Assembly (NCBI GenBank): GCA_036270025.1
Contig: DATBDI010000456.1
Span: 1-40,574, forward strand
Direction: 5' to 3'
Length of the DNA: 40,574 bases
Origin: Candidatus Udaeobacter sp.
GTDB taxonomy: Bacteria; Verrucomicrobiota; Verrucomicrobiia; Chthoniobacterales; UBA10450
Every line of letters starts with the position of its first letter. Within the stretch, counting starts at the first letter, position 1. A program made the position numbers and the translations under genes. The notes beneath the pieces were generated by a model, which saw only the letters and a program-made list of their open reading frames with translations, searched no databases and was not told the DNA's origin. Shown here piece by piece: positions 18,651 through 22,862 of this stretch.

Positions 18651-20723
18651 TTACAAACCTACCAGCTTCACAGCCCCGAGAAAATAAGCAGCCCGGAAAT
18701 TGTCGTTCCCCACAAGCGCGCGAATTGATTCTGCGTTGGCGCCCGCCTGACCGTAACCGATGGTAGCCGCGGGAGGTACCGGACAGGGCGCCGCGGCGAT
18801 GCCCGCTTCCATCTGGCCTTTGAACGCAGCATTCGAACCCGCTCTGGACCGAATGGTTTCGTACAGCTGCACTCCTAATACCTCAGTAAAGCCTTCAACA
18901 ACGATCTGGCCGAACCGGATGCTGCTCGCACTAACTGGAAACGTCGGATGCACCATCGCATGGACCAACTCGTGAGTTAACGTTTTAATCGTTTGCCATC
19001 GCGCCGCGCATTCTGTCGTCGTGCTGAGATTGAACTCGGTGGAAATGCCAACCTCTGGACCGCCGGGAGGGTGTGCCGTTTGTCCAGTGTGTTGGATCAG
19101 CCGGTTTACTAACGGCTGAATAACCGGATCGGCTTCCATGGGAGTTACGATGGCGAGTAATGCTGCCTGGTCGGCAGGACGGCTTGAATCATAATTACAA
19201 TTGTCGAAGATGGCGCCGCCAAGCTGACTCTTCCGGCCCACAATTTCAGCTCTATTGAGCAGATAACTAATGCGATCGTCGACCGTGGGAACCATCGGAA
19301 CGGTGGAGGTTATGTGTGCCGAGTACACCCAGCCTCTGGAATATGCATTCGCCACAGCTGTGTCTCCATATGGCGCAAAGAACGCACGTGCTTCGACCTG
19401 AATCTGGTCTCCGATACTTTGAATACCTCCTATCGGGTCAGTCCCGACCGAAGGCCAACTGGCAGGATCACGAGCTTGCAAGAGCGCAATCAAGGCTGGA
19501 GGTATGTCAGCGTTAAGTCGCACTGCGTCCAGGGCTCCTCCGGGCGGGGCGCTCGGGCCGGGAGGCGGATTAACCAGCGTGGATATGCTTGTAAGCGTAG
19601 CCCCTGTTGGAGCAGTTAACCGGGCAGACAGCGCTATCTCGAACCAGCCACTGACGCGCAAGACCTCATTCGGAAAATTAGGGAGAGGTCCCGACAGTGG
19701 CTGCGCCGCGGCGGATGGCGCGTGAGCGATTAGGCGCTGCACGCCCTGAACCCTATTGAAACCGCTGTGCGCCGCTGCTGTGTTGTCGACTAATATGTCC
19801 AAACCGAATAAAACCCATCTCTTTTGATCCTGAGTCAGTGCCGCCAAGGCGGCGTGAATGATGGCGGCGGGGCTCCCGGTCCAGCTGGCGAAGCGCCCTT
19901 CGATTTCGGTCTCATAATCGCTCGTCGGAACACGGATGATGTTTCCGTAATCAATCTGGATCGTCAGTGCTCCCACATTGTAAACGGCCCGAGCCAGTCG
20001 GGGCGCACCAAACGATCTCGCGGGTGTCACTCCCAGCGGCGGGACCACGATTCCAGGTACCTGATCAATCTGATGAAATGCTAAAAATCCGTTAGACTCG
20101 TTCGCCGTTACTCCGCTCTTGGGGAGGAAGAAGGAATTTCCTGCCGTTGGCACGTCCCTAAGGTTTCCGACAACGGTTTGAGATATTCTTTCGGCTTCCT
20201 GCTCCAGCGGGTCGCTCGGCGAGCTTATTTTTAACTGCGATGCTGATTGACTGGCTACTCCACTTTGTTGGATGGCATGAGTTAGTTCATGGGCCAATAA
20301 CGTTTGTCCCTCGGTTGTGGCTGGCGAGTATTGGCGGGTGGCAAATACCACATGGTTTCCCAACGTGAATGCTTGAGCATCAAGCGCGCGTGCAGACTCA
20401 GAAGCTTTTTCGTCATTGTGTATCCGGATCCTAGTGAAGTCGTGACCGAATCGCGGTTCCATGAAAGCACGAGTCCGCGAATCGAGTGGCTGACCAGGAG
20501 AGCGCAGGACTTCGTGAACAATGGGAGGAACCTCAGCAGGTTGAGAGTTGAAGGTTGAGGGTTGAGAGGTGAAACGTTGCAGCCGCTTTTGGCGACACGC
20601 TTCGCATTCTCCTGTCGGCCCAGGCGTGCCTCCGCAGGCGCATTTGCGTTGCAGTAGTCCGCCTCGCGCCGACGTTGAGGGTGGCGGTGTGGCTTTTGTT
20701 TGAGCGCGCAATGTTGTTTCCAT
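18651..20723 (-). CDS. DUF4157-domain protein (about 690 aa) with a Cys4 leader and a large C-terminal domain carrying a second HExxH; putative eCIS cargo/toxin
   Basis: ARGGLLQRKCACGGTPGPTGECEACRQKRLQR, IVHEVLRSPGQPLDSRTRAFMEPRFGHDFTRIRIHND, LLAHELTHAIQQ and C-terminal LTHELVHAMVHP. ATG 20723 chosen over TTG 20795 by alignment with the paralog leaders; it sits 4 nt after the upstream stop. Confidence 0.85.
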   Translation of the reverse strand: METTLRAQTKATPPPSTSARGGLLQRKCACGGTPGPTGECEACRQKRLQRFTSQPSTFNSQPAEVPPIVHEVLRSPGQPLDSRTRAFMEPRFGHDFTRIRIHNDEKASESARALDAQAFTLGNHVVFATRQYSPATTEGQTLLAHELTHAIQQSGVASQSASQLKISSPSDPLEQEAERISQTVVGNLRDVPTAGNSFFLPKSGVTANESNGFLAFHQIDQVPGIVVPPLGVTPARSFGAPRLARAVYNVGALTIQIDYGNIIRVPTSDYETEIEGRFASWTGSPAAIIHAALAALTQDQKRWVLFGLDILVDNTAAAHSGFNRVQGVQRLIAHAPSAAAQPLSGPLPNFPNEVLRVSGWFEIALSARLTAPTGATLTSISTLVNPPPGPSAPPGGALDAVRLNADIPPALIALLQARDPASWPSVGTDPIGGIQSIGDQIQVEARAFFAPYGDTAVANAYSRGWVYSAHITSTVPMVPTVDDRISYLLNRAEIVGRKSQLGGAIFDNCNYDSSRPADQAALLAIVTPMEADPVIQPLVNRLIQHTGQTAHPPGGPEVGISTEFNLSTTTECAARWQTIKTLTHELVHAMVHPTFPVSASSIRFGQIVVEGFTEVLGVQLYETIRSRAGSNAAFKGQMEAGIAAAPCPVPPAATIGYGQAGANAESIRALVGNDNFRAAYFLGAVKLVGL

Positions 20724-20727
20724 TATC

Positions 20728-21777: not shown

Positions 21778-21959
21778 TTGTCCAATCCTCCAGGCACCTC
21801 CCCTGACTGCAAAGTGCGCGTGAGCATGTCGGAGTTGCATGTCAGCATAATGACGCGCCGCACCGCCGAACTCTTAGCGTAGCGCAACACGATGGCGGCT
21901 TTGTGCAAGCGCGGGGAGTTAGGGAATGTCAACATCAGAACACCTTCATATTTGATTGC

Positions 21960-22862
21960 TCAGATCTTTAAGATCTCTCCATTCTCCGAGAACCCACAGG
22001 GCCACGGTAGTGCCTTGGGACAGCGTTCGCGGACTTGGTCCTCTACGAAGTTGAACTGCTTTTGCAGACTCTGACAGCATTCCTCGCTTGTTTTGCTAGA
22101 GCGGGTCGCGCACTGATCCCTGAGCAGGTTTTGAAGACAACGGTCCTCTGTATTGTACGCGTTACATTCAGTCCAGTCGTCTATGTGGTTCCAATACTCG
22201 ATCCATTTCTCCCGGCATTTATTACGTCCGTCCACCGTGGAAGCATTTTGAATACAACGCCCGTATCGCTCACAACACAGAGTCATGTCTTCTACATGTT
22301 GGTCTTCGTGCTGCTCGACACAGTTGCCTGCACAGTGCTCTTCGAACACACTCTTTTCGACAATGCCTCTCTCAGTATTACACGCCGCAACACCCAGAGG
22401 CCTCCTGTAGAGTAACTGTTCATCTTCTGAGGAAGACTCTTCCATTGCGCACCTGTATTTCAGTTTCGTGTCGAGCTGAGAAATTCGGTGCTCAGCACTT
22501 TTCTGACGGAACCGCCCGTGGTGGAAGCTTTCCTGCGTGGAATGAATTCCCATCTTGCTGAAGTCGTGGCCGAAGCGCGGCTCCATGAAGGCACGTGTGC
22601 CCGGGTCCAGGGGCTGACCGGAGGAGCGCAGCACTTCGTGGACGATAGGATGCACATCCGAACGTTGAGAGTTGAAGGTTGGGAGTTGAGTGGATGTATC
22701 GAAATTCCGGGGTTTTCGCTGCAGTCGTTTCTTGCGACACTCTTCACACTCGCCTGTCGGGCCAGGCGTGCCGCCGCAGGCGCACTTGCGTTGGAGCAGG
22801 CCGCCACGCGCCGACATCATAGCCGGCGGCGATCGTTTCGGCTTTGTCGTCCGTTCAATCAT
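21960..22862 (-). CDS. Truncated DUF4157 N-terminal module (no HExxH half) fused to a Cys-rich C-terminal domain; putative eCIS cargo
   Basis: ARGGLLQRKCACGGTPGPTGECEECRKKRLQRK and IVHEVLRSSGQPLDPGTRAFMEPRFGHDFSKMGIHS, then a roughly 190-aa A/T-rich-encoded region with about 15 Cys and HEDQH. The ATG overlaps the upstream stop (ATGA). Confidence 0.8.
   Translation of the reverse strand: MIERTTKPKRSPPAMMSARGGLLQRKCACGGTPGPTGECEECRKKRLQRKPRNFDTSTQLPTFNSQRSDVHPIVHEVLRSSGQPLDPGTRAFMEPRFGHDFSKMGIHSTQESFHHGRFRQKSAEHRISQLDTKLKYRCAMEESSSEDEQLLYRRPLGVAACNTERGIVEKSVFEEHCAGNCVEQHEDQHVEDMTLCCERYGRCIQNASTVDGRNKCREKWIEYWNHIDDWTECNAYNTEDRCLQNLLRDQCATRSSKTSEECCQSLQKQFNFVEDQVRERCPKALPWPCGFSENGEILKI

Follow-up and report, generated by a model that had tools for sequence, protein, structure and literature searches.

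A conserved four-cysteine leader on candidate cargo proteins of an extracellular contractile injection system from Candidatus Udaeobacter

Introduction

The question of how cargo is chosen and loaded limits the use of extracellular contractile injection systems (eCIS) as programmable protein-delivery devices. DUF4157 is a core marker of these systems and stands N-terminal to toxins (Geller et al. 2021, PMC8213781); under an older name, PVC-metallopeptidase, it was defined by an HExxHxxQ signature and proposed to release toxins by autoproteolysis (Zhang et al. 2012, PMC3482391). In AlgoCIS, the adjacent proteins Cgo1 and Cgo2, each built from an N-terminal domain (NTD), DUF4157 and a domain at the C terminus (CTD), fill the tube lumen (PMC8894135). 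AlgoCIS loading needs the NTD and the AAA+ protein Alg15, while DUF4157 is dispensable (bioRxiv 10.64898/2026.05.27.728243). Here, we describe a related arrangement in a stretch of 40,574 nucleotides from Candidatus Udaeobacter sp. (GenBank assembly GCA_036270025.1, contig DATBDI010000456.1, positions 1 to 40,574), referred to as the window. Three consecutive genes in its eCIS operon, encoding the proteins P3, P2 and P1 in operon order, begin with a common leader containing four cysteines and then diverge. Unless another locus is named, coordinates are window positions, and all window features named lie on the minus strand.

Results

Three consecutive genes share a leader

Profile searches identify the window as an eCIS operon with sheath, tube, Pvc16 cap, AAA+ ATPase, VgrG-like spike, baseplate J and TIGR02243 proteins. 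P3 (300 aa; 21960-22862), P2 (349 aa; 20728-21777) and P1 (690 aa from its ATG; 18651-20723) are encoded by the first, second and third candidate cargo genes. As the initial annotation of this DNA had it, they lie between the ATPase block, with the AAA+ gene at 23630-25813 upstream, and the tube and baseplate genes that run from 18046 downwards, and the alignment confirms its description of a common cysteine-containing leader followed by divergence. Each N terminus has 17-20 variable residues, then (A)R(G/S)G(L/F)LQRKCACGGTPGPTGEC(E/D)xCR(K/Q)KRLQR; a linker of 15-22 residues leads to PIVHEVLRS(S/P)GQPLDxxTRxFMEPRFGHDF, after which the three proteins part. The general form of the cysteine module, hereafter the knuckle, is ΦQRK-C-x-C-GG-x7-C-x2-C-(K/R)n-ΦQRK, with flanking R/K runs and a net charge of about +6. 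It comprises residues 18-49 of P3 (ARGGLLQRKCACGGTPGPTGECEECRKKRLQR; 22716-22811), 21-52 of P2 (21622-21717) and 19-50 of P1 (20574-20669), as assigned from alignment, motif count and codon comparison, and for P3 and P2 also from AlphaFold2 (AF2). For P2, the start used is the ATG that gives homolog-consistent spacing, with LQRK at residue 26. The additional claim that nucleotide composition diverges completely beyond the leader was overstated, the GC fractions of the C-terminal parts of the three genes being 0.56, 0.57 and 0.50.

Back-translated, the core TGYGCNTGYGGNGG occurs three times in the 40.6-kb window against an expectation of 0.08, and none of 100 shuffles reached three. Across the 32 codons of the leader, each pair of paralogs has 13-16 synonymous codon differences and only 2-4 non-synonymous ones, a pattern repeated in the conserved block after the leader. 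Differences of this mostly synonymous kind argue for an old duplication with purifying selection on the protein, and not for recent copying or chance.

Two other origins of the shared 5′ ends were considered and rejected: recent duplication or gene conversion, since about half of the leader codons differ synonymously, and a non-coding or RNA element, given the conservation of the protein across phyla, the lack of any Rfam match in the window, and promoter-like and terminator-like sites in no excess over chance between 17900 and 23800.

At a public Joint Genome Institute (JGI) copy of the locus (L076, Ga0376667_0005907, 5133-9068), automated gene calls shorten the proteins of 300, 349 and 690 aa to 208, 275 and 603. 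The JGI starts of all three genes lie downstream of the leader, so that the motif is hidden in the predicted proteins, at least for this copy, which exposes an annotation problem.

The knuckle is widespread and fixed in position

A 97-position profile of the leader and the DUF4157 head was searched against 1.84 billion 50%-identity representatives; 3,985 clusters match at E≤1e-10 and 7,825 at the looser E≤1e-3. Because it also covers the first part of DUF4157, some of the weaker matches among the 7,825 may lack the knuckle. The pattern ΦQ(R/K/T)(K/R/N)-CxC-x(7-13)-CxxC is matched by 131 of the best 148 representatives. In these 131, ΦQRK begins at a median of residue 25 (10th-90th percentile 23-40), and in 129 of them the spacer between the cysteine pairs is exactly nine residues long. 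Taking all proteins retrieved, 231 of 252 knuckles (92%) start within the first 60 residues. Wherever the knuckle is present, its four cysteines are invariant or ≥90% conserved. A homology search with the leader alone gave only 31 short fragments, showing conservation, not abundance. The module has no entry in Pfam-A, NCBIfam or the PDB, and full-text literature searches found the motif string LQRKC/QRKCACG in no relevant paper; the same was true of DUF6973, the C-terminal domain of P2.

A scan for LQRKCACG over one genome per species yielded at least 598 stretches; 470 could be confirmed, and 75 loci were retained. Cultivable carriers include Pseudomonas carbonaria CIP 111764, Nostoc sp. MG11, Komarekiella delphini-convector, Calidithermus roseus and Methylocaldum sp. 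GT1BB. The loci span at least ten phyla, among them Verrucomicrobiota, Acidobacteriota, Chloroflexota, Cyanobacteria, Gammaproteobacteria, Planctomycetota, Actinomycetota, Deinococcota, Gemmatimonadota and Armatimonadota. In a few sequences (P0053, P0130, P0056 and L030:9917-11362), the knuckle occurs twice or internally, or the whole knuckle-DUF4157 unit is repeated; in P0130, for example, knuckles at residues 420 and 900 are each followed by an HExxH. Proteins of this kind look like fused tandem cargo units.

Leader genes occupy a recurrent slot in eCIS operons

Chosen as they were by the motif itself, the 75 loci bear on its linkage to eCIS and not on how many eCIS have it. Their eCIS genes were found by BLASTP with window proteins at 1e-5, so that divergent contractile injection system (CIS) genes could be missed. 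At least two eCIS core genes adjoin the leader genes in 64 of the 75 loci, in collinear order, which ties the motif to eCIS and speaks against its being equally common in genomes without one. The order is constant: sheath, tube, cap, AAA, s102 (a small gene described below), one to four leader genes, tube-like gene, LysM-like gene, spike and baseplate. An AAA+ homolog is present in 60 loci and a homolog of the window's tube-like gene (17399-18046) in 56, and leader genes often stand two to four in tandem. Most of the remaining loci are on contigs too short to judge. Six others (L017, L023, L027, L040, L062 and L067; ~17-20 kb) contain leader + DUF4157 genes and no eCIS gene within 10 kb on either side; from their sequence context, these appear to be orphan cargo genes, comparable to orphan effectors of type VI secretion systems.

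The two anchors, ATPase and tube-like gene, are both present in 51 loci. The slot between them measures 0.26-10 kb (median 4.3 kb) and holds 0-6 open reading frames (ORFs) of ≥200 aa, 83 of 111 (75%) of which carry the knuckle; ORFs in these other loci were taken from stop to stop, and slot counts are approximate. The mid-operon island first noticed in the window is hence real and recurrent. The slot between ATPase/s102 and tube initiator is probably a recombination-prone cargo island. Its upstream edge is marked by s102, with the consensus M.I.LHIEELVLHGF..DR..IG.AVE.EL.RLL...G.P over ~85-100 aa. A phmmer search with s102 gave 59 rows, some loci appearing twice, and most of the 75 loci, from many phyla, have it right behind the AAA+ ATPase and next upstream of their first cargo gene; s102 belongs to no Pfam or NCBIfam family.

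How often does an operon of this lineage do without the knuckle? Loci anchored on s102 provide a leader-independent sample of 70 usable loci, restricted to one sub-lineage and based on the narrower alignment A7, since A6 was too divergent. In 35 of the 70, a Cys4 gene adjoins s102; three have a two-Cys variant, 17 a DUF4157 gene without the cysteines and 15 neither. The 17 cysteine-free loci include decayed knuckles, such as LLQRKSACGDTLGPGEECRKK in L122 and LSQRKSAFGDSAGL in L086, and in several of the 15 the slot is empty, with s102 next to the tube-like gene. A role for s102 as a knuckle-specific partner was rejected on these counts, some loci having no cargo gene at all; s102 is a component of the lineage.

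The knuckle is separable from DUF4157

PF13699 (eCIS_core, that is DUF4157 or 'PVC-metallopeptidase') is a model of 79 positions with a curated cut-off of 22 bits. Model positions 1-77 are matched by P1 at 106.4 bits (residues 79-155; 20259-20489) and by P2 at 106.9 bits (residues 81-157; 21307-21537), and the HExxHxxQ signature reads HELTHAIQQ in P1 and HELTHVIQQ in P2. P3 aligns to positions 1-28 only and, at 20.1 bits, falls below the cut-off. It diverges from P1 and P2 right after FGHDFSxxxIH and has no HExxH (HELTHxxQQ) at the corresponding place; what remains is residues 84-111 (22530-22613), with the catalytic part missing, while the PIVHEVLRS...FGHDF block (residues 72-101) begins slightly upstream. 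Of the three DUF4157 paralogs in the initial annotation, two therefore stand, and P3 should be named 'leader + DUF4157 head' rather than a DUF4157 protein. There is also a fourth, complete DUF4157 gene, P4, the last gene in the operon (943-3306; PF13699 at 112.6 bits).

The truncated form of P3 does not look like a gene wreck, because full-length homologs of the same architecture (leader, head and Cys-rich C terminus) exist and align over 88-100% of P3 at ~30-55% identity. Leader genes with the FGHDFSxVxVH head only were found, besides P3, in L001 (second gene), L010, L045, L053, L057 and L065, and in L036, L038, L044 and L048 DUF4157 is absent altogether, the leader being followed by ...QPGDxYEQEADRVA... 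and an unrelated domain. Conversely, some homologs keep only a CxxC pair or no cysteines. The leader of P4 also differs, with a FAQK start, FAHDFSRMSVY, ILQTKLQVNTPGDTYEQEADRAGEQVM, CPGC as its only cysteine pair and PLQTK; its N-terminal region has an extra FAHDFS motif and an LQTK...PGDxYEQEADR module.

C-terminal domains

Behind their constant N terminus, the C termini of P1-P3 are unrelated to one another. This is the polymorphic-toxin-style architecture that had been proposed for the three genes, as described for DUF4157 proteins (PMC3482391; PMC8213781). P2 ends in a DUF6973 domain (residues 218-305; 20863-21126; PF22322 at 67.4 bits), and the pairing of DUF4157 with DUF6973 is common among homologs. 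P1 ends in a 530-aa region with a second HExxH (HELVH), for which Pfam and the PDB gave no match. The 540-aa C-terminal region of P4 belongs to no family, with a weak Pesticin match at E=0.097 and no significant PDB sequence match. The C-terminal domain of P3 (residues ~157-300; 21960-22394) is Cys-rich and helical with an HEDQH motif, and neither a Pfam family nor a fold in the PDB matches it. Among its 16 homologs, C177, C181, H185, E186, H189, C197, E232 and C233 are invariant, along with others. It represents an uncatalogued Cys-rich family of ~140 aa with invariant C..C...HE..H and TEC.AY motifs and ~12 conserved cysteines.

Sharing of C-terminal domains is very rare: against the ORFs of the 75 loci and 179 retrieved proteins, the four C-terminal regions of the window had 2, 1, 1 and 0 matches. 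Elsewhere, proteins homologous to the N-terminal part have GH24 lysozyme, SLT, CHAP, M23, polysaccharide deacetylase, OmpA, Tox-WTIP, phospholipase A2, transglutaminase, aspzincin and Hint domains, many of them directed at the cell wall, which suggests antibacterial use in those cases. Pfam (E≤5-10) and NCBIfam searches with the leader, the C-terminal domains and the small genes s102 and u179 gave nothing useful, nor did those with a third small gene, s160, beyond its PF26731 listing. PDB sequence searches with the leader profile, P2 and the C-terminal regions of P1 and P4 gave no significant match.

Structure prediction and motifs at module boundaries

The AF2 model of P2 (110 homologs) has a mean predicted local distance difference test (pLDDT) score of 85.8, with 83/80 over knuckle residues 31-50 and low-confidence stretches at 22-25 and 58-63. 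A helix spanning residues 43-55 begins at the second cysteine pair. In the P3 model (16 homologs), residues 31-50 score 83/74 and the rest up to residue 156 stays at or below ~50, including the DUF4157 head, which comes out as disordered, while the C-terminal domain (157-300) reaches 88-97 and forms three long helices and a hairpin. Over the leader region, residues 1-25 and the linker after the knuckle score ≤~60 and the knuckle 74-83, as measured by AF2 confidence. A confident knuckle between low-confidence flanks in two independent models suggests that it behaves as an autonomous mini-fold. In the models, the module has the features of a Cys4 site: four conserved cysteines in two pairs, the second at a predicted helix N terminus. 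A second CxxC pair in this position is typical of zinc knuckles. Foldseek found nothing significant in the PDB (best E 0.66 for P2 and 0.96 for P3).

ΦQ[RT]K brackets the knuckle: of 247 proteins, 215 have it at -4 from the first cysteine and 141 at +20/+22, and it occurs 1.82 times per protein against 0.11 in shuffles. The shorter ΦQR recurs after the HExxH of DUF4157: its rate per 100 aa is 0.81 at 5-20 residues and 1.39 and 0.67 at 40-80, compared with 0.06 expected from composition and ~0.09 far downstream, an enrichment of ~10-20 fold. At least one ΦQR stands 20-100 residues after HExxH in 77 of 180 proteins, and P4 has AIQRK ~65 residues after it (residue ~296). ΦQR(K) punctuates module boundaries and, more speculatively, is a candidate cleavage or recognition site for a 'releasing peptidase'.

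Operon context

Immediately upstream of the sheath gene (29519-31207) lies a gene for a sigma-54-dependent activator (31868-33304), a possible regulator of the eCIS operon. The tube gene (28973-29503) is followed by two genes without assignment and by the Pvc16-type cap (25810-27165). The AAA+ ATPase (PF00004 and PF22977), which has an N-terminal winged-helix domain and belongs to the Afp15/Pvc15/Alg15 class, is the upstream anchor of the slot and a candidate loader. Directly downstream of it comes the 102-aa gene s102 (23325-23633), then s160 (160 aa; 22859-23341), which has two CxxC pairs (HCPKC, CFKC) and is listed as DUF8243 (PF26731) in precomputed matches of a newer Pfam; these two stand between the ATPase and P3. 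The P3 gene overlaps the stop of the gene upstream by 4 nt, 182 nt separate P3 from P2, and 4 nt lie between the P2 stop and the P1 start.

Directly after P1, the last cargo gene of the slot, stands u179 alone (179 aa; 18104-18643), an orphan with no match in Pfam, NCBIfam or the 75 related loci; s160 was likewise found in none of these loci. The two could be immunity, chaperone or accessory proteins. The tube-like protein that follows (17399-18046) has a weak CIS_tube match (PF19266, E=1.4e-5, below the cut-off) and is presumed to be the tube initiator and downstream anchor of the slot because it adjoins the spike genes. Next come a small Phage_tail_X-like gene, a 446-aa gene, the VgrG-like OB-fold spike (15411-15950) and the baseplate genes (TIGR02243, Baseplate_J). 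Between these and P4 are genes for a DUF6519 protein (4612-6048) and an M10/astacin-like metalloprotease (3323-4420).

Discussion

P1-P3 are very likely cargo of the eCIS whose operon encodes them. That they are modular effectors, in which the N-terminal region serves as address and the C terminus as payload, is probable; the address role is assigned by analogy with Cgo1 and Cgo2 of AlgoCIS, whose N-terminal loading requirement is consistent with the zinc-dependent packaging role that the initial annotation had suggested for the Cys4 motif. In such a mechanism, the basic knuckle of ~30 residues would probably bind one zinc ion through its four cysteines and form a small folded handle within an N-terminal region that is flexible elsewhere. 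The address would let the AAA+ ATPase encoded upstream feed the cargo into the tube lumen, or would dock the cargo at the spike end. The delivered activity would reside in the C-terminal domain (DUF6973 in P2, the Cys-rich helical HExxH domain in P3 and the 530-aa region in P1), and DUF4157 would be an accessory, serving in processing or in association with the spike/tube-initiator complex.

We tentatively propose that the knuckle may bind zinc and contribute to loading or recognition, although we regard this as somewhat less than probable. A more far-reaching version is doubtful: that the knuckle is a portable, zinc-stabilised address tag, read by the N-domain of the AAA+ ATPase or by the spike/tube initiator in one very large eCIS clade spread horizontally through at least ten phyla, with flanking and downstream ΦQR(K) as DUF4157 cleavage sites. 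If true, a tag of ~30 residues would mark out the set of cargo proteins in thousands of uncultured soil bacteria and would be a folded, sequence-defined loading signal, unlike the 'disordered, non-conserved' signals described so far.

How does the locus compare with described systems? Like Cgo1 and Cgo2, P1-P3 are tandem in-cluster paralogs with similar N termini, a central DUF4157, different C termini and an AAA+ protein in the cluster, an arrangement repeated in 64 of the 75 loci. They differ in that P3 lacks the catalytic part of DUF4157 and in that the Cgo N termini, compared here by description only, are reported to be disordered and system-specific, whereas P1-P3 have a predicted Cys4 knuckle found across at least ten phyla. 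With the PVC-metallopeptidase toxins of eCIS (PMC3482391; PMC8213781; Danov et al. 2024, PMC11297309) they have in common a constant DUF4157 with hypervariable C termini, several paralogs per genome, tight eCIS linkage and, often, the lack of an adjacent immunity gene. Those toxins are mostly encoded at the operon's 3′ end and have the peptidase as their constant part; P1-P3, however, are encoded mid-operon, and their most constant element, the knuckle, lies upstream of the peptidase and can be present where there is none. The payloads of Photorhabdus virulence cassettes, Pnf and Pdp1, resemble P1-P3 by having an N-terminal address of ~50 residues, Pvc15-aided recognition and a dedicated AAA+ protein (PMC11495950; 10.1101/2023.08.15.553202). 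Compared by description only, they differ by lacking DUF4157 (10.64898/2026.05.27.728243), and no cysteine motif is reported for them in the texts consulted. In the Streptomyces systems, a DUF4157 gene adjoins tube-initiator/spike genes, with synteny across phyla, as here; Tme of S. davawensis is a tape-measure-related protein of 2,247 aa (PMC11126660) and SLIV_17110 of S. lividans a small adaptor for a separate effector (10.1101/2025.11.06.686954), whereas P1-P3 have 300-690 aa and unrelated C termini. Finally, the module shares with Cys4 zinc knuckles and treble-clef fingers of the A20 type two close cysteine pairs, the second at a helix start, and basic flanks; it differs in having no significant sequence match to them and in the unusual C-x-C of its first pair.

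Several observations weigh against the effector interpretation and the part assigned to the knuckle. None of the C-terminal domains of P1-P3 matches a characterised toxin in Pfam, NCBIfam, PDB sequence or Foldseek searches. There is no recognisable immunity gene: for the sole candidate, u179, none of the libraries searched gave a homolog. No family of zinc fingers matches the leader, the best hits being A20-type Zfand5 (E=0.26) and zf-Paramyx-P (E=0.19), and the high pLDDT of the knuckle may partly reflect conservation in the alignment. Nor is the knuckle universal: it is missing or degenerate in about half of the sister loci, some of which still have DUF4157 cargo, and is thereby ruled out as an obligatory signal of this eCIS lineage. 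Loading sequences have moreover been called disordered and not conserved between systems, on the basis of six cargo proteins from three systems (10.64898/2026.05.27.728243). At the sequence level, this description does not appear to hold for the present clade.

Could the proteins belong to the particle itself rather than being carried by it? As structural or assembly factors, tape-measure-like or spike-bound plugs, they would dock onto the spike/tube-initiator complex through the knuckle. Their genes are immediately upstream of those for the tube-initiator-like and spike proteins, an obvious tape-measure gene was not found in the window, and in Streptomyces the spike tip, the VgrG-like spike and the tube initiator co-purify or interact with DUF4157 proteins (PMC11126660; 10.1101/2025.11.06.686954), Tme being related to tape-measure proteins (PMC11126660). 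A copy number of 0-6 between otherwise collinear operons, with a slot that can be empty, is hard to reconcile with such a function, as are the hypervariable C termini and the enzymatic toxin or cell-wall hydrolase domains of homologs, and we consider it very unlikely. Docking at the spike would be compatible with cargo, so that only the 'structural, not payload' part is disfavoured.

The knuckle could also act on DUF4157, as a latency pro-peptide of the cysteine-switch type that caps the zinc of the zincin until delivery, with the flanking ΦQRK as self-cleavage sites. It is always N-terminal to the zincin-like domain where both occur, and the ΦQ[RT]K brackets, together with the recurrence of ΦQR after HExxH, resemble autoprocessing sites of a 'releasing peptidase' (role proposed in PMC3482391). 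We nevertheless judge this option very unlikely: the knuckle is kept where the catalytic part of DUF4157 is missing (P3, L036, L038, L044 and L048), the fixed spacing of its four near-invariant cysteines points to a metal site complete in itself and not to a single switch cysteine, and AF2 predicts low-confidence linkers on both sides of it. Equally slim is the chance that the cysteines bind no metal, and instead form disulfides after particle release, or that the basic knuckle sticks to an acidic tube lumen or to nucleic acid. R/K runs flank the module, no known zinc-finger profile matches it, and homologs with two or no cysteines keep the basic ΦQRK elements; yet the proteins are made in a reducing cytoplasm, the C-x-C-x9-C-x2-C spacing is fixed in 129 of 131 representatives, the four cysteines stay near-invariant wherever the knuckle is present, and the second pair sits, as in zinc knuckles, where a helix is predicted to begin.

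Cargo of the eCIS encoded in the same operon remains our preferred interpretation of P1-P3, and the genes are in themselves typical of an effector class that is well known (NTD-DUF4157-variable CTD). The searchable literature apparently has no description of the knuckle, of its fixed position and conservation across phyla, of its presence where DUF4157 is lacking, or of the recurrent cargo slot. Being short, fixed in position and spacing, under strong purifying selection, and present in about three quarters of slot genes with or without DUF4157, the knuckle is a concrete, mutable candidate for a recognition element, and it offers a cheap marker for cargo that lacks DUF4157.

Best matches of the window proteins are divided between metagenome-assembled genomes of Verrucomicrobiota and Chloroflexota, and loci assigned to different phyla share 60-84% identity in their structural genes, which suggests horizontal transfer of the whole eCIS cluster. 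Among the 75 loci, the closest counterparts of the window's structural proteins are found in Anaerolineae or Verrucomicrobiae, with identities of up to 84% for the tube, 80% for the spike, 71% for the sheath and 69% for the AAA+ ATPase.

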